Source: an uncultured Planctomycetota bacterium
Lineage (GTDB): Bacteria > Planctomycetota > Planctomycetia > Isosphaerales > Isosphaeraceae
Assembly (NCBI GenBank): GCA_963845755.1
Contig: CAWJTV010000013.1
Span: 96,001 to 160,000 of the forward strand
DNA: 64,000 nt
Direction of reading: 5' to 3'
Below are positions 1,527 to 13,217 of this stretch, piece after piece. Position numbers and translations under genes: made by a program. The number at the start of each line of letters is the position of its first letter. The first letter of the stretch is position 1. The notes under the pieces were generated by a model. That model saw only the letters and a list, made by a program, of their open reading frames with translations. It did not search any database and was not told the DNA's origin.

Positions 1527-3015
1527 CAATACCGTTGAAATAGGCGCAAGCCACAGCCTCCTGTTACTTTGGGTTTACTCACGACCCAAGCAACACGGAG
1601 GCCATGACTCGCATGCCGCACGGACATTGCACGCTGCCGCCCGATGGGTCGGGCCGGATCTTGGATCGCTTGGCGGGACTGGAACAGATTATCTCGCCCG
1701 AGGCCGTTCGCCAAGTCCTCGCGGCCACCGGTAAAACCAATCAACGACGTTGCACACTGACCCACGAGATTGTTTGCTGGGTGGTCCTGGCCATGGGGCT
1801 GTTGACCGACTTGCCGATCCGCCAAGTCTTCAAGCATGCACGCCGGCTCCGAGTCGGCGAGGAGAGTCCCCATCGATCCAGCCTGTGTGTGGCCCGGCAA
1901 CGCCTGGGCATCGCGCCGGTCCGCCACCTGTTCGAGCACGTCGTTCATCCTCTGGCCCGGCCCGATACGCCCGGAGCCTTCTACCGCGGGTTCCGCCTGG
2001 TCGGCATCGATGGGACCGTCTACGATGTCCCCGACTCGGAGGCCAACGCCGCGGCCTTCGCGCGCCCTCGGCCGGGCCGCGCGGCGACGGCGCGTTCCCC
2101 CAAGTCCGCAAGCTGAGCCTGGTCGAATTGGGGACCCACATCGAACTGGCCTTCGTGGTCCGGTCGATCGCCCACGGCGAACCGTCGATGGTCGGCGGCT
2201 TGCTCCGCCATCTGACTCCGGAGATGCTCCTGTTGGAGGATCGCGGGTTTTTCAGCTATGACCACTGGAAAACGGCGATGTTGCGGGGCGTCCAGCTGTT
2301 GGCACGCGTGAAAAGCGGCTTGATCCTCAAGTCGATCCAAAACCTGGCGGATGGCTCGTACCTGGCCAAGATTTATCGGGGTTGCTACGACCGTCAGATC
2401 GATCGGGATGGGATCGTCGTCCGGGTGATCCGCTATACACTGGACGACCCGCAACGAGTCGGACACGGTGAAACTCATGTGCTGATCACGAATCTCCTTG
2501 ACGCGGAGCTTTATCCTGCTGAAGAATTGATTATTCTTTATCACGAGAGATGGGAACAGGAGTTGGTCTATGATGAGCAAAAGACCCATCATGATCCGCG
2601 GCGGGCGACCAAGCCGGCACAGATGCGAAGCGAGACCCCGGCGGGGGTGATCCAGGAGATCTATGCGCTGTCGCTGGGTCATTTCGTGATCCGAGCCTTG
2701 ATGGTTGCGGCCGCCGGGACCGTGGGGCTGGACCCGGATCGGCTGTCGTTTCTGGGGTGCTTCCAGATCCTCAAGTGCCGGTTGCCAGAATGCAACAGCT
2801 CGACCCCCGAGGCGTTCGAGGAGTGGTACCAGGGATTGTTGTGGGAGATGCAGGGGGAGCGCACCGATGACGAAATGCGGAGGAACCGGATCAATCCGCG
2901 AGTGATCAAGCGTAAAATGTCCAAGTGGAAAAAGAAACGATCCAAACATCGACACATTCCGCCCTTGAAGAAAACCTTTGCAGAGACAGTGGTTATGCTT
3001 CCTTAAACGGTATTG
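1527..3015 (+). mobile_element. IS4-family insertion sequence, 1489 bp
   Basis: Terminal inverted repeats CAATACCGTT.../...AACGGTATTG; perfect 10-bp target duplication CCGCTAACCC at 1517-1526 and 3016-3025. Confidence 0.95.
1604..3006 (+). CDS. IS4-family DDE transposase (one frameshift near 2060)
   Basis: Motifs GIDGT, LEDRGF and YHERWEQE (YREK-like) are split across ORFs 1604..2116 and 1750..3006. Confidence 0.9.
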
Positions 3016-6000
3016 CCGCTAACCCCCGTTGATAGGACCCGTTTCCAGGATCGCCCTTGACCAAGGCCTCGCGCAAGTTGAGTGCCCGGTCGCAGTAGGT
3101 CCGCGCCTCGGTGAGTCGGCCCTGCGCCAGCAGGGCCGCCGCGACCTTGGTCTCCCAGCCAGCCAGCGTGTCCCGATGCGAGCGGTTCGTCGGCTCGGCG
3201 GCAACGATCTGCTGTTGAACGGCCGCCGCCTCCACGCAGGCGGGGACCGCCTCGACCGTCCAACCCGCCTTGAGGAAACTCCACCCGAACGTCCCCAGGC
3301 TGGAGGCCAGCCAACGCTGGGACTGCGTATTCGAAGGATTTTCGCCGACTCGTTTTCGCCAGATCGCGACAGCCTCCTCGAACGACTGGCGCGCCTCGCG
3401 CCTCCTGCCCATCCGGGCGAGGGCGTTCCCAGCGATGAGGTGGCTGTACGGCAGATGGATCCGAGAAAGAGAGGAGTTCGGATCGACGGCGAGCATTTTC
3501 TGGATCATCCGCCGCGCCTCGGCCAGTCGTTCCAGGGCCTCGGCCGGGCGGCCGTCGTCGATCAGTTCGGCCGCCAGATTATTCAGGCCGAAGACCAGGT
3601 TGTTCCCCACGGATGTCAGGGCGGGATTGGCCTCGGCCTCTCTCCTCCAGATCGCGACGGCCCGACGCTCCGACACGACCGCCTCGTCGAGCCGGCCCAG
3701 GTCGGCATGACCTCCCGCGATATTGCTATAGAGCTTCGCCAACACGTCCCCGAAACGGTACACGTCGGGCTGGGCGTCGACCAGCCGCTGGTAGATCGCC
3801 GCTGCATCCGTGTTCGTCGCGATCACGTCGGCTGGCCGGCCCGACCGGTAGAAGACATAGCCGATCGTGATATGACTGGCACCAAGCTCTTCCTGGTAAC
3901 GCGTCACCCCGGGATGCTTCCTGACAAGCTCTTCACAAATTGTGCGGGCGCGCTGGGCTGTTTCCAGTTCGGCTCGGGGGTCGGCCATGTCCATGATGGC
4001 GTCATTCAGGGCCTTGGCCAGCAGTGCGCGGGACTCGTCGCCGCCCCGGCCCGCCGCGACCAGGCCCTCGGCCAGGCGGCGCGCCTCCGTGTGAGCCGCC
4101 TGCGTCCCGGTCTTGTCGCCGCTGTCCGACATCGCAACGGCCATGTCGAGCAGGCTCCGGACCACGTCGATCTCGGCCTCGGGCGCGGCACCGGGCCGGG
4201 CCGCCAGCTCCCGGCGCAGCGCCAGGGCCTTGCGGTGGATCGCCAATGCCTGGTCATGGGTGCCGATCTGCCGGGTCAGCGCGGCCAGCTCGAAATAGGC
4301 CCCGCCCAGCGCCGACCGGGATGCCAGGTCCGGCTGGCCTTCCAGCATCTGCTCCAGCTTTTCATAGAAGCCGGCTGCCCCCTTGAGCAACCTGGACCGC
4401 AGGTCGGCGAATTCCTTCTCCTTGAGCAACAGGTCCTCGCTGACCTCGCCGTGGAAGAGCTTGATCGCGTCCATCGCCAGCTCGAACCGCTGACGCTCCC
4501 GCTTATTAGCCGACGCCAACTCGGCGTTTGTCCGCGTCACTCGCCCGTTGGCCGAGGCCAGCTCGGCGTTGGCCGTCTTGAGGCCGGCGTTGGCGTCGTC
4601 CACCTGGCGGTAGGCGGTTGCCAGGTCGTTGTTGGCGTGCTTCAGCTCGCGATTGGCCTGCGCCTGGACGGCCAGGATTCCCGCCAGGCCGACCACTCCG
4701 GCCACCAGCGCGACCACCGCCGCAGTCACCCCCGTACGATGGCGACGCATCCAGCGGCGGGCCCGGCGGGCCCACGGCTCGTTCCAGGCCGATACCGGCT
4801 CATCCGCCATCCACCGCTCGACGTCGTCGGCCATCGCCCGCGCCGACGGGTACCGATCCGAGGGCTGGAAGGCCATGGCCTTCAGGACGATCGCCTCCAG
4901 GGCCGGGTCGATCGACGCGTCGGCCTGCCGCGGGCGGGCGAACTCGCCCCGCTGGACGGCGGCGACCACCTCGCCGAGCTCGCCGGCGACGGGCGGGCTC
5001 CCGGTCAGGAGGTAGGCCATCGTGCCACCGAGGCTGTAAACGTCCGACTGCGGTCCAAGGTCCACGATTTCTCCCCGCGCCTGCTCCGGGCTCATGTAGG
5101 ACGGCGTGCCCAGCGCGCTGCCGGGGAGTGTCTCGACGCTTCCGCTGGCCGACGAGGGGACCAGCGCCCGCTCGCCCGAGTCGGCGCCGGCCTCGGCGTG
5201 GCCCCGTGCCTTGGCCAATCCCCAGTCGACGAGCAGGGTCTCGCCGTGGTTGCCGACGATGACGTTGCTCGGCTTGATGTCGCGGTGGATCACGCCGCGG
5301 ATGTGGGCGTACTCGACGGCGTTGCAGACGTCGGTGAACCGGCGCAACAGCTTGCGCAACTCCAGCGAGCGGCGGCCGGGGTCCGACTGAGTGGCTGGGT
5401 CGGCGTGGAAGTGATCGGCGGCCTCCTTGAGGCTGTCCCCGCGGATGAACCGCATCGCGTAGTAGGGGCGCCCGTCGGCGTAGGCGCCCAGCCCATAGAC
5501 CGGGACGATCCCGGGATGCTCGAGGCACCCGGTGATCTCGGCCTCGATCAGGAAGCGGGCCCGGCTGATCGGGTCGTCGGCGTGTCGGTCCAGGATCTGC
5601 TTGAGGGCCACCTCGCGGTTCAATTCGGCGTCGAGGGCGACGAAGACCGCCCCGAGTCCGCCCTGGGCGTGGGGTCGAAGGATGCGAAATCGTTGCCTGG
5701 CGGTCTCGCCGGTCGTGCGGTCGACGTCGTCCCGGCCGCCGGCTGGGTAGCCGACCGTCCGCTCGGCGTCGTCCCGGCCGTCGTCGGTCCGTCTCTCGCC
5801 CAAGGCGACGTGGCCGAGTGTCCGGCCGATGTCCGGGTCGCCCAGGTTCGTCAGGCTTTCCAGTGTGGACCGTCCGGCGGGAACGGCGGCCAGGCTCGTG
5901 GCGACGTCGCCGCCGTGGGCCTGGACGTGCAGGTCGGCCAGGGCTTCGATGACCGCCCGCTGGGCGACGTTGAGGTGGCCGAGTGCGATCAGGTGGTCGG

Positions 6001-6118
6001 CCAGCGACCGGGACTTGTCGCCGGTCCAGGTGTTGAAGGCGGCCAGGAGCTGCGCAGGCTGGATCAGGTCGTTCTGCAGCGCGAGTAAACCGAGCAGGAG
6101 CTGGCGGTCGGCGGACAT
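2993..6118 (-). CDS. Hanks-type Ser/Thr protein kinase with TM helix, coiled coil and TPR repeats; truncated by IS4
   Basis: GGLGAVF, VALK, HRDIKPSN, DWGLAK and GTPSYMSPEQ motifs; likely start MSADRQLL at 6118; the last few codons (AIPFKEA) come from the IS end. Confidence 0.92.
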   Translation of the reverse strand: MSADRQLLLGLLALQNDLIQPAQLLAAFNTWTGDKSRSLADHLIALGHLNVAQRAVIEALADLHVQAHGGDVATSLAAVPAGRSTLESLTNLGDPDIGRTLGHVALGERRTDDGRDDAERTVGYPAGGRDDVDRTTGETARQRFRILRPHAQGGLGAVFVALDAELNREVALKQILDRHADDPISRARFLIEAEITGCLEHPGIVPVYGLGAYADGRPYYAMRFIRGDSLKEAADHFHADPATQSDPGRRSLELRKLLRRFTDVCNAVEYAHIRGVIHRDIKPSNVIVGNHGETLLVDWGLAKARGHAEAGADSGERALVPSSASGSVETLPGSALGTPSYMSPEQARGEIVDLGPQSDVYSLGGTMAYLLTGSPPVAGELGEVVAAVQRGEFARPRQADASIDPALEAIVLKAMAFQPSDRYPSARAMADDVERWMADEPVSAWNEPWARRARRWMRRHRTGVTAAVVALVAGVVGLAGILAVQAQANRELKHANNDLATAYRQVDDANAGLKTANAELASANGRVTRTNAELASANKRERQRFELAMDAIKLFHGEVSEDLLLKEKEFADLRSRLLKGAAGFYEKLEQMLEGQPDLASRSALGGAYFELAALTRQIGTHDQALAIHRKALALRRELAARPGAAPEAEIDVVRSLLDMAVAMSDSGDKTGTQAAHTEARRLAEGLVAAGRGGDESRALLAKALNDAIMDMADPRAELETAQRARTICEELVRKHPGVTRYQEELGASHITIGYVFYRSGRPADVIATNTDAAAIYQRLVDAQPDVYRFGDVLAKLYSNIAGGHADLGRLDEAVVSERRAVAIWRREAEANPALTSVGNNLVFGLNNLAAELIDDGRPAEALERLAEARRMIQKMLAVDPNSSLSRIHLPYSHLIAGNALARMGRRREARQSFEEAVAIWRKRVGENPSNTQSQRWLASSLGTFGWSFLKAGWTVEAVPACVEAAAVQQQIVAAEPTNRSHRDTLAGWETKVAAALLAQGRLTEARTYCDRALNLREALVKGDPGNGSYQRGLAAIPFKEA

Positions 6119-6638
6119 CTTGAACTCCGGCAGGACATCGTCGTTGGCCCGTTCCCCACGCCATGAGTGTGGTCCGGATGAGTTTTTTGATTCTAATTGA
6201 TCGATGGACCGGCAGCAGCGCCGAGCATAATCGGAGAGGGAACCTGGGGACATCGTCTACCGGTCCCGGACTGAAATCGGGGCACCCCGATCGAAACGCA
6301 GAGGAGCGATCACAGGCGAAACTCGCTTCCGTGAGCTCGCCCTCTGGCGGCAAGTGGCGGAGCCGGGAGTTGGTGGTTCATGGAATCACGACGCGAAGTC
6401 CGGACTCAGGGCCGTGGAAAAACGCTTGCACGCTTCACTCCGACACGCGGGAGGGACTTCGGTCCGACACCACACGCATTCTTGGGGTAACAATTTGCAG
6501 GCTCTCGCGGCCGGAACAGCTCGAGCGCCTGTCGGATGAGTTGCGCACGGACCAGGACCTCGTTGGGTTGACACGACCCCTTGGGAAGCAGGCGACCACG
6601 GGACGACCCGAGTGTGTCCAACGCAACCGTGAAGCGCT

Positions 6639-8635: not shown

Positions 8636-9478
8636 ATGATCGACGACGTGATCGCCCTGCGGCCGCGGATGATGTCCGTCGCTTACCGGATGCTCGGGAG
8701 CATGGTCGACGCCGAGGACACCGTGCAGGACACCTTCGTGCGCTACCAGACTGCCGGAGGCGTCTCTTCGCCCGAAGGGTTTCTCGTCCGCACCGCGACG
8801 CGTCTCTGCATCGACCGGCTGCGGGACCGGAAGCGGCGGGGTTACGTCGGACCGTGGGTGCCCGAGCCGGTGGAGACGAGCGGGCGGGAATCCGCCCTGG
8901 CCGACTCCTTGACGCAGGCTTTCCTGCTCCTCCTGGAGCGGCCGACGCCGGACGAGCGGGCGGCGTTCCTGCTCCGCACCGTCTTTGACTACGAGTACGC
9001 GGAAATCGGCAACGTGGTGGGGCGGTCGGAGGCGGCCGTTCGGCAGATCGTCAGCCGGGCCCGGCGGCGGCTCGGGCTGGAAGGTGGGGAGCGGTTTCAT
9101 GCCAGCGGAACCCGTGCGGGTGGCCTTGCCGAGCGGTTCATGGCGGCCTGCCGGACGGGGGACGTGAAGGCGGTCGAGCAGATGCTCACGGAGGACGTCG
9201 AGGTCCACTCCGACGGCGGGGGCAAGGCGTCGGCGGCGCGGGTCGTGGTCCGTGGGCGCGACCGGGCCGCCCGGTTCCTGGCCGGGGTGTTCAGCAAGAA
9301 GCGTGCTGACTGCGAGATGCACGCGACCACGGTGAACGGCGCGCCGGGGGTGGCGTTCAGGTACGGCGGCGCGGTGGTTCAGGTCGTGGCCCTGTCCCTC
9401 GGGGTCGGGGTCCGGGCCGTCGATATGACCAACAACCCGGACAAGCTGTCCCGCTGGGTTGTTGCGGAGGTCGAATAG
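8636..9478 (+). CDS. sigJ: ECF RNA polymerase sigma factor, SigJ/ECF41 type with SnoaL-like C-terminus
   Basis: AYRMLGS..DAED.VQD, YVGPWVPEP, SDGGGK and NPDKL signature motifs. Confidence 0.9.
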   Translation: MIDDVIALRPRMMSVAYRMLGSMVDAEDTVQDTFVRYQTAGGVSSPEGFLVRTATRLCIDRLRDRKRRGYVGPWVPEPVETSGRESALADSLTQAFLLLLERPTPDERAAFLLRTVFDYEYAEIGNVVGRSEAAVRQIVSRARRRLGLEGGERFHASGTRAGGLAERFMAACRTGDVKAVEQMLTEDVEVHSDGGGKASAARVVVRGRDRAARFLAGVFSKKRADCEMHATTVNGAPGVAFRYGGAVVQVVALSLGVGVRAVDMTNNPDKLSRWVVAEVE

Positions 9479-9531
9479 GTTTCGCCATACGAATCGCCCG
9501 AAACCTGGGGCGACAAACAAGGAGATTCGTC

Positions 9532-10287
9532 ATGAAGATCGTGGTCATCGGTGGCAGCGGGCTCATCGGGAAAAAACTCGTGCCGATCCTTCGCGAACGC
9601 GGCCATGAGGCGGTGCCGGCTTCTCCCTCTTCGGGCGTCAACACCCTCACCGGCGCGGGGTTGACCGAGGCGCTCGCCGGCGCGGGGGTCGTCGTCGATG
9701 CGTCGAACTCGCCATCGTTCGCGGATGCCGCGGTGCTGGAGTTCTTCCAGACGTCCACTCGAAACCTGCTCGCCGCAGAAGCGGCGGCCGGGGTGGGGCA
9801 CCACGTCGCCCTGTCGGTGGTCGGGGCCGACCGCCTGCCGGACAGCGGATACATGCGGGCCAAGGTCGCGCAGGAGCAGTTGATCGCGGCCGGCGAGGTG
9901 CCATACACGATCGTCCAGGCCACGCAGTTCTTCGAGTTCCTCGGTGGGATCGCCGGGCCGAGGGCCGATGGCGACACCGTCCGACTCCCGACGGCACCGA
10001 TGCAGCCTCTGGCGGCAGACGATGTGGCTGGAGCACTGGCCGAAGTCGTCGTGGGGGTGCCGGTGAATGGGATCGTCGAACTGGCGGGGCCCGAGGCGGC
10101 GCCCATCGCCGAGTTCGTGGGGCGCTTCCTGGCCGCGAGTGGGGACACCCGCACGGTGGTCGCTGACCCGCAAGCCCGCTACTTCGGCGCGGTGCTGGAC
10201 GACCGCGGCCTGAACCCCGCGGGCAACCCGCGCGTCGGCCCGACGCGGTTCAAGGACTGGCTCGGCCGCGCGGTGTCTCAGGGATAA
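9532..10287 (+). CDS. NAD(P)-binding Rossmann-fold oxidoreductase (NmrA/atypical SDR)
   Basis: MKIVVIGGSGLIG, GYMRAKVAQE and ATQFFEF; a typical ECF41 neighbour. Confidence 0.88.
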   Translation: MKIVVIGGSGLIGKKLVPILRERGHEAVPASPSSGVNTLTGAGLTEALAGAGVVVDASNSPSFADAAVLEFFQTSTRNLLAAEAAAGVGHHVALSVVGADRLPDSGYMRAKVAQEQLIAAGEVPYTIVQATQFFEFLGGIAGPRADGDTVRLPTAPMQPLAADDVAGALAEVVVGVPVNGIVELAGPEAAPIAEFVGRFLAASGDTRTVVADPQARYFGAVLDDRGLNPAGNPRVGPTRFKDWLGRAVSQG

Positions 10288-10400
10288 GTCGGCGTTCGCG
10301 TATTTCGGGGGGCGACTGTCCTGGGAATGGTAGGGCGCCTCATGGTTGCGTTGCACACGCGACCCAGGGTGCTCTGCGAGTACCGATCACAAACCCGTTG

Positions 10401-10560
10401 AGGAATCCCCAATTCCGGATTCCGGATTCGAGATTCCCGATTCGGGAATCCTTCCTGTTGGGAATCCGGAATCGCGAATCCGGAATCCCTCTGTTGCATC
10501 GACAAAACGTGACTGATTCGTCTCGGTGCTCTCTGTGGCTCTGTGGTGAATCTCTTCGGG
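10401..10560. repeat. Short heptamer tandem repeats in inverted arrangement, plus a CTCTGTGG-type short repeat
   Basis: ATTCCGG/ATTCGAG/ATTCCCG units followed by GAATCCG/GAATCGC units; CTCTGTGGCTCTGTGGTGAA near 10531-10550. Lies between convergent genes. Confidence 0.7.
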
Positions 10561-10572
10561 TTTGCTCCCTGG

Positions 10573-11806
10573 TCAACGCCACCCATAGCCGTAGAAATGC
10601 TCGGGCGCGACGCGCTCGGCCCGGCTCTCGGTGGCAAGGCTCAGCACCGCTCCGAAGGGTGCTGGGGCAAGGTCGTTGCCCCGGCCGTTGTACTGCGTGC
10701 CTCCCCGGCGGGTCCCGACGGCCACCACCTCGAAGCCGACGAAGCGCCCCTGCTTCCGGTCGAAGCGCGCCGAGCCGAGGAGCTTCATCTCCAGGCCGCG
10801 CTCCTGAACGCTTGGCTTCTTCATGTCGCGATAGCCGCGAATCGACCAGTCTCCCTTTTGTACGGCCTTGGTCCGGCCTTCCAGGCGGAGGGAGACCACG
10901 TCGCCCTGGACTGCCGTGATGCGGCTGGTCAGTGTCGCGTCCTCGATCGCACGCGCCGGGAACGGTGAAGTCTGTCCACGCACGTTGTCGAGGAAATGGA
11001 ACCGGGCGAGTCGCTCGACGAGGGGTCGCGGCACCTCGCGCGTCCGGCCGGGCTCGATCTCCGCGGGCAAGAACTGCCCGGCCTCCTCCTTGGTGAACCA
11101 GGCGAAGTCCTGGTTCCAGGCGTCGGCCCACCGCCCTTGCTGCGGCGGGTTGCGCGGCAAGTCGCGTGTGTTGACCTTCAGGACCAGGCCGCCCTCGGGG
11201 AAGAATCGATCGGCCCGGTTCAACTGTGCGATGTCCAGCGGATCTTCGCCCGAGAACTTACGCCCCTCGGCCTTGAGATTATCCCAATTCTTCAGGGCCT
11301 CACGCAGCTTGCGGGCGACGAATCGCGGGTTATTGTTGTTCCAGGAGGCCAGGAACGTGCCGTCGGCCGTGGTGGCATAGGTCCCCTGACGCGTGCCCGA
11401 GGGCGCGTGCGGCCGGCATAGTGGCCCTGTTCGGCGATCTTCTGGAAGAGCCGGCACTCGGCGTCACTGCCCTTCTGCAGGCGCCCCACCTCGTCGGCGG
11501 CGGGGATGAACTTCGCGGTGAGCTCCTTCACCTCGGGGTCGGTCCAGACAGACTGTCTGGCGATCACGCCGTTGTTTCAGGTACATCCCAGGGGATGACC
11601 GTTCATCGTCCAGAGCAGGATGGGCCGATCGGTCTCTCTCGCCTCATTGATCGCGATGTAGAACGACTCCGCCAGGGGATCTCCAGGTAAGACTCCTCCT
11701 TGACCTGGGGACGGATATAGTCACGCCATCGCTCGAACGACTGATCGTCCAGGACGGGCGCCTGCCCCAGCGCGACGATCGCGGCAAATAGGAACGCGTG
11801 CATCAT
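10573..11806 (-). CDS. Secreted thioredoxin-fold protein with in-frame TGA (putative selenoprotein); two apparent sequencing frameshifts (near 11670 and 11405)
   Basis: Signal peptide MMHAFLFAAIVALG; IPWRESF..A...A....RPILLWTMNGHPLGCT*NNGVIARQSVWTDPEVKELTAKFIP. TGA at 11579-11577 is in frame with the downstream ORF 11292..11567. Confidence 0.75.
11536..11576 (-). promoter_or_regulatory. Putative bacterial SECIS hairpin
   Basis: mRNA after the UGA: AACAACGGCGUGAUCG-CCAGAC-AGUCU-GUCUGG-ACCGA. Perfect 6-7 bp upper stem (11544-11560) with a G-containing loop about 22 nt after UGA. Confidence 0.6.
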
Positions 11807-12122
11807 TCGCCCGGTCTCCAGAGAAGGATCTCGCTGGCCACTCCGAGACTCGCATTAGACACGGGCCGCATCCCCGTGTGCAAGGGACAACAGCAAATGC
11901 CTCACCCGAACTCTGCCTTCGTGGTTCGCGACTCATCATCGGCGGTCGGTCTGGGTGAGACCCTCGGGCAAACGGGTACCACCTCGGTTGAGATGGCAAT
12001 CAAAGTCCTTCCAAGTTCTTCGGCCAGATCGCCGCTCCGCAGATTCTTACCGCGTCTGCCAGGCATCGAATCAAAACCTCCTGCGGACGAGAGAACATGC
12101 CCAGGCATTTTTCCGGCGCGGA

Positions 12123-12940
12123 TCAGCGAGAGAACGTGGTGAAGAAGTAGGGGCGCGGCCACCCGACGCCGTTTGGTCGAAGGCGAACTCCCAGACTTGT
12201 TTCCCCTTCCGCGAACCGCGAATGGTCGCATTCGCCTCCGGGGCAAAGGCATATTGCCACTCGGGGCCGTTCTGGCCGTTGCGCATTTCGAGGAGCAGGT
12301 AAACTTCGGCGTCGGTGGCCAGCACGAAGGTAAAGAGTGCGCCGTCGAGCGCCTCGGATCCAGGCTTGCCGTATCGCGCCAGCGGCTTGGACAGGAGGCG
12401 AAGATTGTGCCACGTCTGGAGGTCCCAGTTCATCTCGGCGCTGAAGCCCTTGGCGAGCTCGTGCATTTGGCGGAGCCGGCGCTCCGGCGAGTCGGACGGC
12501 CTGGGTGCGTCGGGCACGGGCTTGAACTCGACTCCCGGACGGCCTGGATTCCAGGTGCGGTCCGAGACCAGTGCGTCGGTCGAGAGTGAGGAGAAGGCCT
12601 GGAACCAGGTGCCGTCGCTTCCGCGATAGACCTGCACCGCCGCGGCCGGTCTTTCGGCCGGGTCGAGCCAGAGAAAGATCGCCCCGTCGTGGACCGTTCC
12701 CACCGGATTGTTGAATCGCAGGACAGGGTCGGGCTTCAGGCGGAACACCGTCTTGGGATCGTCCGCGGGGTGGAGGTTGTACTGCGCCAGCGAGTCCTTC
12801 ATGAACGCGAGCCGCTCCGTGGACGTGTCGGACTTCGCCGTCGCCATCTTCTCCCCCGCCTTTGCCGCACCTTTCGCGGCAGTCGGCGCTTGGCTCAGAA
12901 CACCGAGGATCAACGCGAGCGATAACGAGAGAGTTGTCAT
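12123..12940 (-). CDS. Planctomycete-type secreted hypothetical protein (probable frameshift near the 3' end)
   Basis: Signal peptide MTTLSLSLALILG; PVLRFNNPV..DGAIFLW, LRLLSKPLARY, DGALFTFVLATDAEV; GC-biased codons. Confidence 0.7.
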
Positions 12941-12953
12941 CGTGGGCTCCCGA

Positions 12954-13217
12954 TCAACGGCGCGAGATGGTGACATGCCCGTAAAGGCTTCCACGGATCG
13001 GGTTGGACCATTTGAGGAGCGGCTGGGGCACGAGCCGGAATGGCGCACCGCCGGGCCCGGCGGCGCGGATGGTGATCGGGCCCACCTCCTTGCGACCACG
13101 CTCCAGGGCCGCGTTCGCCGGCGCCTTCTCGTCGTCCGGCTCGTCGCCGAAGACGAGACCCGCCGCCAGCAGGCAGGAGAACGCCGGGATTACCCGTGTC
13201 GTCGGCCGTCGTCGCAT
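12954..13217 (-). pseudogene. Truncated paralogue of the adjacent secreted protein
   Basis: Signal peptide plus FRLVPQPLLKWSNPIRG, resembling FRLKPDPVLRFNNPVG of the neighbour; stops after about 87 codons. Confidence 0.55.

Follow-up and report, generated by a model that had tools for sequence, protein, structure and literature searches.

An in-frame TGA codon in a planctomycete gene points to an unnamed family of exported thioredoxin-fold selenoproteins

Results

A gene interrupted by an in-frame TGA codon

We examined a stretch of 64,000 nucleotides (nt), hereafter the window, from contig CAWJTV010000013.1 (positions 96,001 to 160,000) of assembly GCA_963845755.1, which derives from an uncultured bacterium of the Isosphaeraceae in the phylum Planctomycetota. 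On its minus strand lies a gene with an in-frame TGA codon, and this gene very probably encodes an exported selenoprotein. Gene coordinates are window positions on the minus strand (Table 1). Around the codon the strand reads ATG AAC GGT CAT CCC CTG GGA TGT ACC TGA AAC AAC GGC GTG (...MNGHPLGCT-TGA-NNGV...), and the protein motifs that flank it are ..RPILLW.. and ..VWTDPEVKELTAKFIP.. A first-pass annotation, made from the letters of the window, had pointed out the TGA at 11579-11577 and a hairpin 16 nt downstream, and both could be read directly from the minus strand.

Translation of the window revealed that the gene is spread over three minus-strand frames. Frame 1 runs from the ATG at 11806 to about 11670, begins with MMHAFLFAAIVALGQ and ends with EIPWR. 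Frame 3 reads ...SFYIAINEARETDRPILLWTMNGHPLGCT-TGA-NNGVIARQSVWTDPEVKELTAKFIP...GRTRP and extends to about 11404, and frame 2 contains a 294-residue open reading frame (ORF; 11457-10573). The closest relatives were found in two genomes, designated G008 (87% protein identity) and G004 (84%), and the orthologous loci L026 (411 residues) and L025 each occupy one reading frame. The TGA had been described as exactly in frame with the downstream coding sequence. This holds for the whole gene in the G008 and G004 orthologues, which have a single frame of 411-413 codons, whereas in the window copy it holds for only the next 58 codons. The proposed length of roughly 410 residues agreed with the 411 residues in G004.

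Table 1. Features of the selenoprotein gene candidate and of its surroundings (window positions)
Feature	Position	Strand	Remark
Whole gene	10573..11806	-	411 codons once two missing bases are allowed for; ATG 11806-11804, stop TGA 10575-10573
Signal-peptide-like hydrophobic N-terminal segment MMHAFLFAAIVALGQ	11762..11806	-	Judged by hydropathy, not by a signal-peptide predictor
Frameshift 1, one base missing	11669..11670	-	CGTGAG or CGGGAG in orthologues, CGGAG in window (alignment column 52)
Thioredoxin-fold domain (predicted)	11263..11692	-	Residues 39-182 of the orthologue model
TGT, Cys two residues ahead of selenocysteine (C of C-x-U)	11583..11585	-	Likely selenenylsulfide partner
In-frame TGA read as selenocysteine, residue 77 (predicted)	11577..11579	-	Conservation among homologues
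Hairpin of the selenocysteine insertion sequence type, 7 bp, CCAGACA/UGUCUGG, loop GUC	11544..11560	-	Stem starts 16 nt, loop 23 nt after UGA
Frameshift 2, one G missing	11403..11404	-	GCGGCCC in orthologues, GCGCCC in window (alignment column 318)
C-terminal beta-rich domain, 217 residues (predicted)	10576..11226	-	No confident solved relative
Terminal TGA, ordinary stop of the same gene	10573..10575	-	TGA also the final stop in 8 of 13 homologous genes
Ser/Thr kinase with tetratricopeptide repeats	2993-6253	-	Window neighbour
Extracytoplasmic function sigma factor with SnoaL-like domain	8636-9478	+	Window neighbour
NAD(P)H-binding protein	9532-10287	+	Window neighbour
342-residue ORF without Pfam family	12071-13099	-	Directly upstream, same strand

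Conservation of the TGA codon and of the coding sequence on both sides

When the C-terminal ORF was used as a query, matches were obtained in 9 of 61 related genomes, including the source genome (G000). Among 15 related loci, the conserved protein extends upstream across an in-frame stop at the corresponding position in 13, and each of these 13 stops is TGA; as for the other two, L032 lacks a stop at this position, and in L040 an N-terminal part could not be recognised. Taking into account that TGA is also the ordinary stop of the window gene and of 8 of the 13 homologues, the codon has not been reassigned across the genome.

The G004 orthologue read through its TGA (P0003) was then compared with 401 genomes sampled from the phylum (E <= 1e-8). 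As a result, 122 genomes matched. An in-frame TGA was present in 139 of the 150 matches listed, out of 169 (138 with one, one with two), a frequency far above what chance would give, and none of those 150 had TAA or TAG at the site. The 11 listed matches without a stop comprised 4 that end short of the site and 7 that span it, with Cys in two (GQAC in L072, ACNC in L073), Asp in one, Val in one and an insertion without Cys in three.

On two contigs, C321 of G374 (5270-6415 and 10121-11290) and C37 of G275 (9048-10160 and 10780-11886), one copy with the TGA lies a few kb from another that has neither selenocysteine (Sec) nor Cys, which suggests that the gene was duplicated in tandem and that one copy then lost the redox residue.

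When 1.84 billion representatives were searched with a profile, we obtained 4383 proteins or representative clusters at E <= 0.001, 2843 at 1e-10 and 811 at 1e-30. Among the best 150, 133 stop short of spanning the site, as expected for ORFs called after the stop, and 17 are full-length forms that span it without a stop. The residue at the site in these 17 is Cys in seven (P0125, P0148, P0171, P0185, P0196, P0265 and P0271), Ser in three, Ala and Asp in two each, and Gly, Arg and Asn in one each. Trp was found in 0 of the 24 TGA-less forms examined. Concerning the first-pass expectation that homologues would keep an in-frame TGA or have Cys instead, we thus found TGA in 13 of 15 loci and in 139 of 150 listed matches, with Cys in 2 of 7 and 7 of 17 TGA-less forms. 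It had also been stated that Trp, Arg or an unconserved residue would speak against Sec; the TGA is kept and Cys is the commonest replacement, but Ser, Ala, Asp, Gly, Arg, Asn, Val and one Trp occur as well.

In a named protein collection 773 matches were obtained, and 119 of the best 120 cover 81% of the query or less. Five of these proteins were examined, and they either start at V/M-IARQSVW, four codons after the TGA, or are full length. All source names seen were 'hypothetical protein'; one member comes from an Isosphaeraceae metagenome-assembled genome (MAG), and others from MAGs of Planctomycetota and Armatimonadetes. With the plain 294-residue ORF of the window as a protein query, only unnamed Planctomycetota clusters were returned. 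The supposition that ORF callers split the gene in two is borne out by these public proteins, which start just after the TGA.

Between G008 and G004, the ratio of non-synonymous to synonymous differences per site (pN/pS) was 0.35 for the 74 codons ahead of the TGA and 0.23 for the 326 codons behind it, so purifying selection acts ahead of the codon as well as behind it. Across 40 aligned full-length members (A2), Sec occupies an invariant column (40 of 40), and Arg at +7 from Sec, W45, P62, G70, D234, G311 and G345 are invariant too. The Cys of the C-x-U motif is kept in most of the 40, with exceptions such as L053 (AAGU) and L078 (ANTU). The alternative that the two halves occur as separate genes, which the first-pass annotation had named, does not agree with the purifying selection on both sides, with an upstream part that comprises strand 1 of the fold as well as the signal-like N-terminus, or with a structural model that folds across the site.

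Selenocysteine machinery in the source genome

The source genome (14.27 Mb, 49 contigs, 87.9% complete) was searched for the components of Sec synthesis and insertion. All were present above curated cut-offs, as had been predicted for a genome that uses Sec: selA (471.6 bits; cut-off 267.9), selB (298.5; 242.25), selD (376.2; 125) and tRNA-Sec (78.4; gathering score 47), the last with the anticodon TCA according to ARAGORN. The selA and selD genes are intact.

In the phylum sample, selA (E <= 1e-60) was detected in 118 of the 122 genomes with a family member and in 170 of the 279 others, an association whose Fisher p-value overstates independence because the genomes are related. Among the four family-positive genomes without selA, G197 and G357 carry TGA-less forms, G389 is 67% complete, and the match in G203 lies only downstream of the site. 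Overall, selA (E 1e-60) was found in 288 of the 401 sampled genomes, and Sec use appears to be widespread in the phylum. Complete Sec machinery is reported for Isosphaera pallida and Gemmata obscuriglobus in a 2016 paper (PMC4807772).

A hairpin downstream of the TGA codon

Exactly 16 nt after the TGA are found CCAGAC (11560-11555), AGTCT and GTCTGG (11549-11544). RNAfold adds one A:U pair to the stem given in the first-pass annotation, which results in 7 bp and a loop of GUC. A further extension by UCG/CGA had been proposed; it can be drawn with a 2-nt bulge, but lies outside the minimum-energy fold. According to passages of PMC13188914, the model of the bacterial selenocysteine insertion sequence (SECIS) has an apical loop of 3-9 nt, a G in the first two loop positions, 4-16 bp in the upper stem and a distance of 16-37 nt between UGA and loop, and the hairpin in the window has all four features (loop GUC, 7 bp, 23 nt from UGA).

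In 41 genes of the family, the best hairpin conforming to this model had a median energy of -8.3 kcal/mol at the true UGA, compared with -2.6 kcal/mol elsewhere in the same genes. A hairpin of -8 kcal/mol or lower was present at the UGA in 23 of 41 genes vs 10% of background windows, and the UGA hairpin ranked in the top tenth of its own gene in 20 of 41 and in the top quarter in 34 of 41. Stem sequences vary by clade: in addition to CCAGAC/GUCUGG in the window, we observed GGCGGGC/GCUCGCU, GGCCGGC/GCCGGCU, UCGAC/GUCGA and GGGAAC/GUUCCC, these four each enclosing a CGUGC-type loop 18 nt from the UGA.

Covariation in a fixed register was evaluated with an alignment of 31 main-clade sequences (A3). 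Pairing was present in 78.3% of cells, compared with 28-48% when the partner was slid, and pair 26:30 alternates between A:U (10 sequences) and G:C (10). Sequences in which Arg is encoded by CGN (CCC at columns 20-22) have GGG at columns 35-37, from the codon that follows Trp, in 8 of 10 cases, and those with AGR (CCA) in 0 of 14. This GGG/CCC switch is a compensatory change that alters the next amino acid. A check of hairpin conservation had been called for in the first-pass annotation; it yielded a family-wide enrichment of model-conforming hairpins after the TGA together with modest covariation in the fixed register. The RNA evidence is supportive, not decisive, for Sec insertion.

Predicted fold and export

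For the G004 orthologue, AlphaFold2 with the alignment of 40 sequences as input gave a model with a mean predicted local distance difference test score (pLDDT) of 93.9 and a predicted template modelling score of 0.91. The model folds across the TGA residue, which is placed just ahead of helix 1 of the thioredoxin fold, so that the predicted structure has its redox residue at the N-terminus of that helix. Judged from the model, the N-terminal domain belongs to the Thioredoxin_7/DsbH/AGR/UAS class of thioredoxin folds. When profiles were aligned to 3ira and 3f9u, Sec coincided with the first Cys of CxxC; in an hhalign comparison with the VPGUxxT protein described below, Cys75 pairs with the Sec of VPGUxxT and Sec77 with its second Cys. 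Since these alignments differ, the position of Sec relative to CxxC is ambiguous.

The C-terminal domain (residues 195-411), modelled from the window's own sequence, had a pLDDT of 94.2 and is predicted to consist of long-stranded antiparallel beta structure. No confident solved relative was found for this domain, and a single-protein sequence search of the PDB gave only a chance-level match.

Export had been proposed for the protein, and a signal-like N-terminus was indeed found in most of the family: in 37 of 40 members a 10-residue stretch with a mean Kyte-Doolittle value of at least 1.8 precedes the fold, a crude hydropathy measure and not a signal-peptide prediction.

Four of the 17 full-length TGA-less forms (P0124, P0167, P0171 and P0191) are C-terminal modules of Ser/Thr protein kinases (Pkinase, 132-165 bits). 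They hold the whole thioredoxin and beta module, with Asp, Ala, Cys and Ser at the Sec site, and one also has Kelch repeats. The fusion of the Sec-less module to Ser/Thr kinases points to a binding or sensing surface.

Two frameshifts in the window copy

Both frameshifts are single-base deletions in G runs relative to the G008 and G004 orthologues. Contigs of relatives from soil-metagenome runs carry an extra base at each of the two sites wherever they span it. Behind 11403 it was present at 24.4 of a depth of 24.4 in run X1, at 49.5 of 55.8 (38.8 + 10.7) in X3 and at 7.06 of 7.06 in X4, and behind 11669 at 14.2 of 14.2 in X1 and at 36.6 of 73 in X3. Pieces of run X2 that are identical to the window cross neither the TGA nor either deletion. 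No difference at 11577-11579 was seen among the 40 rows listed, out of 270.

We also examined essential genes of the same assembly (contig C34 of G000). The rpoB gene (L080/L081) matches in two adjacent frames with one shift, and rpoC (L082-L085) has two shifts, leaving and re-entering the frame. The rpoB break is a missing base inside ...EHDDAN/..LMGSNMQRQAVP, which we take to be a strongly conserved stretch from what is generally known of rpoB. In G004 and G008, rpoB is in one frame, and in G001, a genome of the same genus, it is split. Taking into account the frameshifted rpoB and rpoC and the extra base in relatives at both sites, the two frameshifts in the window are best read, on this sequence evidence, as made by assembly and not by the organism, in agreement with the first-pass suggestion of homopolymer errors. 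As essential genes are affected, apparent pseudogenes of the source genome should be treated as possible assembly indels.

Relation to known protein families

Pfam searches with the three window pieces and with full-length relatives gave nothing at the gathering threshold, and no NCBIfam model was found to cover the family in searches with window pieces and family members. Scores for PF13899 (Thioredoxin_7) and PF03190 (Thioredox_DsbH, DUF255) were 14.0-17.1 and 13.3-18.9 bits, respectively, against a threshold of 27, a sub-threshold likeness to the Thioredoxin_7/DsbH/AGR/UAS class (PDB 3f9u, 3ira, 2ju5, 3ph9 and 2dlx). Unlike that class, the family has Sec in place of Cys, a motif contracted to C-x-U and an extra beta domain of 217 residues.

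Of the named selenoprotein families, VPGUxxT comes closest (NF041382/NF041383; listed as 'hypothetical protein OS_HP5' in Table 1 of PMC13188914). Its members are exported, Planctomycete-borne proteins whose N-terminal domain resembles Thioredoxin_7 and whose Sec lies in the redox loop ahead of helix 1, and the likeness is confined to the thioredoxin part (hhalign probability 78%, E 1.8e-5, 63 columns). Divergent members of the window family, L036 and L038, gave weak matches to NF041382/3 (E 1.3e-5 to 7.5e-4), the best score in the window family was 24.6 bits against a cut-off of 350, and P0003 gave no match. The motif is UxxC in VPGUxxT and C-x-U with Gly at +3 (GCTUNNG) in the window family. 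Instead of a beta domain, one VPGUxxT member has a Lys/Glu/Ala-rich C-terminal part that looks helical by eye. True VPGUxxT members coexist with the window family in G186 and G334; a search for VPGUxxT in the source genome found none. The thioredoxin-like part of the VPGUxxT model also matched many further Planctomycete ORFs with one in-frame TGA (L091-L094 and others; E 1e-27 to 1e-42, below the family cut-off), which suggests that the phylum contains further exported thioredoxin-like selenoprotein families without a name.

Trx7/PDZ selenoprotein (NF041199; PF13899) is the only prokaryotic family assigned to Thioredoxin_7 in Table 1 of PMC13188914. It differs in its CxxU motif and PDZ domain, and none of six window-family members scanned matched NF041199.

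Among eukaryotic proteins, SELENOF (Sep15) is described in the abstract of PMC9304195 as having a thioredoxin-like domain with a C-x-U redox motif in a secretory compartment. Going by that description, no other protein offers as good a functional analogy for a selenenylsulfide couple of the Cys-x-Sec type, an analogy and not shown homology: Pfam Sep15/SelM gave no match at E up to 1, only the type of motif is shared, and the size and second domain of the window family differ.

SELENON likewise has a thioredoxin-like domain with Sec in a lumenal or extracytoplasmic protein. The first-pass annotation had likened the U-x-x-G-x-x-x-R-x-x-V spacing to that of SELENON, a resemblance that in this form finds no support. 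Passages of PMC12839072 give it an SCUG motif, an EF-hand, a membrane anchor and Sec near residue 458-462 of 590. Compared with these, the window protein and the main clade have C-T-U-N, and Cys directly ahead of Sec occurs only in side clades (VCU in L033 and L035, RCUGG in L036); Sec is at residue 77 of 411 and is followed by the beta domain, and Pfam scans found no EF-hand. PDB searches with family queries returned no SELENON entry; a 2020 PNAS paper on SEPN1, in which the word 'bacterial' does not occur, states that no three-dimensional structure of SEPN1 exists. The C-x-U motif of the main clade, the C-U-G-type motifs of side clades and the Arg seven residues after Sec in 40 of 40 members would suit a reading of the two-domain module as a bacterial relative of the thioredoxin-like (UAS-class) domains of eukaryotic selenoproteins of the endoplasmic reticulum, SELENON in particular. 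We regard such a relation as doubtful.

Genomic surroundings

No conserved gene neighbourhood was found among 41 loci with flanks of about 1.5 kb; an ABC-F ATPase recurs in 5 of 41, and other genes recur only between close relatives. The neighbours in the window provide no functional lead, and none recurs beside homologues. Between the stop of the selenoprotein gene and the convergent NAD(P)H-binding gene is an imperfect inverted repeat (10417-10488) with 27-nt arms that are 93% complementary, 18 nt apart and built of GGAATCC/GGATTCC units. Its unit GGAATCCGGAATC occurs four times at up to one mismatch, compared with 0.25 expected. The repeat may be a bidirectional terminator or a binding site.

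Discussion

Our results make it very likely that the gene encodes an exported selenoprotein of roughly 411 residues, that it belongs to a large unnamed family centred on Planctomycetota, and that the window copy is marred by two assembly deletions. The UGA at 11579-11577 would be decoded as Sec by SelA, SelB, SelD and tRNA-Sec of the genome, with the help of the hairpin that starts 16 nt downstream. Sec would then cap the N-terminus of helix 1, the site of the redox cysteines in CxxC proteins, with a Cys two residues ahead. A reversible Cys75-Sec77 selenenylsulfide may form, as proposed for the C-x-U protein SELENOF, and the protein may act as a periplasmic thiol/selenol oxidoreductase. Substrate or partner binding is probably the role of the C-terminal beta domain, and the Sec-less paralogues and kinase fusions could be binding or sensing derivatives.

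Several points weigh against this interpretation. It rests on sequence and model evidence, and the sequences counted are related, so that counts and p-values overstate independence. A residue other than Cys is present in 10 of the 17 full-length TGA-less forms, and the full-length database protein P0076, seen as a protein only, has Trp at the site. Taken alone, the hairpin in the window is unremarkable: its folding z-score is -1.37, 20 of 200 shuffles were as good, the gene is G+C-rich, and a SECIS-type hairpin just as good is found at 13.7% of the other in-frame positions of the near-identical G008 gene. The UGA hairpin falls outside the top quarter of its own gene in 7 of 41 family genes. 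In A3, 45 of 500 shuffles scored at least as high for covariation, 16 of 31 sequences leave pair 22:34 open, most of them through a switch of register, and RNAalifold finds only three consensus pairs in the main clade. Concerning the frameshifts, the contigs from X1, X3 and X4 belong to relatives and not to the source strain, as the best-matching runs contain only 0.25 of the sampled words. The selB gene (contig C29, L004/L011) is in three frame-shifted pieces, which, if real, would abolish decoding; in G001, the genome of the same genus (87% complete), no homologue was detectable with the C-terminal ORF; and two deletions in 1.2 kb exceed the rate in rpoB and rpoC (3 in about 7.8 kb).

The last three observations, and the proximity of the two frameshifts (within 270 nt), would also suit a different view, in which the family is a selenoprotein family and the window copy is a real pseudogene with genuine deletions, in a lineage that may be losing Sec use. 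We consider this unlikely. Essential rpoB and rpoC are frameshifted in the same assembly, and the rpoB deletion inside a strongly conserved stretch demonstrates that indel errors are present; rpoB of G001 is split too. The window copy has no extra stop beyond the two missing bases and has kept 87% protein identity to G008, and selA and selD are intact. Alternatively, the TGA may be an ordinary stop that separates a gene for a short exported peptide from another for a protein of about 330 residues. All public annotation that we have seen calls the locus in this manner, the listed proteins starting four codons past the TGA, but such a stop would cut the thioredoxin fold between strand 1 and helix 1 and leave a downstream part without a signal-like segment. 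The upstream 76 codons are conserved under purifying selection, relatives read straight through with Cys, and the stop is TGA in 139 of 139 stop-bearing matches listed, which makes two separate genes extremely improbable. A further alternative is that near-cognate decoding, or a reassigned code, places a residue other than Sec at the UGA, for instance Trp, Cys or Gly. P0076 would fit this, and its Trp may equally reflect a TGG codon or, presumably, a gene call under a table in which TGA is Trp. With TGA ending the window gene and 8 of 13 homologues, with TGA-bearing copies going together with selA, and with Cys as the commonest replacement and Trp in none of the 24 TGA-less forms, readthrough to a residue other than Sec is highly unlikely.

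Selenoproteins with a thioredoxin fold that are decoded with a SECIS are well known in bacteria, so the proposed decoding of the TGA as Sec comes as no surprise; what is new is the family, together with its beta domain, and not the kind of mechanism. None of the 119 prokaryotic selenoprotein families in Table 1 of the 2026 review PMC13188914 has its motif or architecture, and it does not appear in the table parts around 'CxU' of the 2022 review PMC9312934. By titles and abstracts, no description of the family turned up in the literature, a comparison that leaves aside the 2026 groundwater MAG candidates 'requiring validation'. Split 'hypothetical' selenoprotein candidates from two marine Planctomycetes in supplement S9 of PMC4807772 could not be matched to the family. 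It is thus apparently undescribed, yet very common.

The family is systematically mis-annotated, its ORFs being called from just behind the TGA, and indel errors in long-read metagenome assemblies can hide such genes behind apparent frameshifts. Once recognised, the family would allow thousands of truncated gene calls to be corrected, and the selenoproteome of soil and freshwater Planctomycetota would gain a frequent member. Should the relation to SELENON be true, the family would provide an abundant, tractable bacterial model for the substrate chemistry of SELENON. Independent of that relation, the Sec-less kinase fusions would identify the module as a domain that senses redox state or a ligand in the periplasm, and the family offers for biochemical study what its sequence suggests is a C-x-U enzyme with a beta domain.

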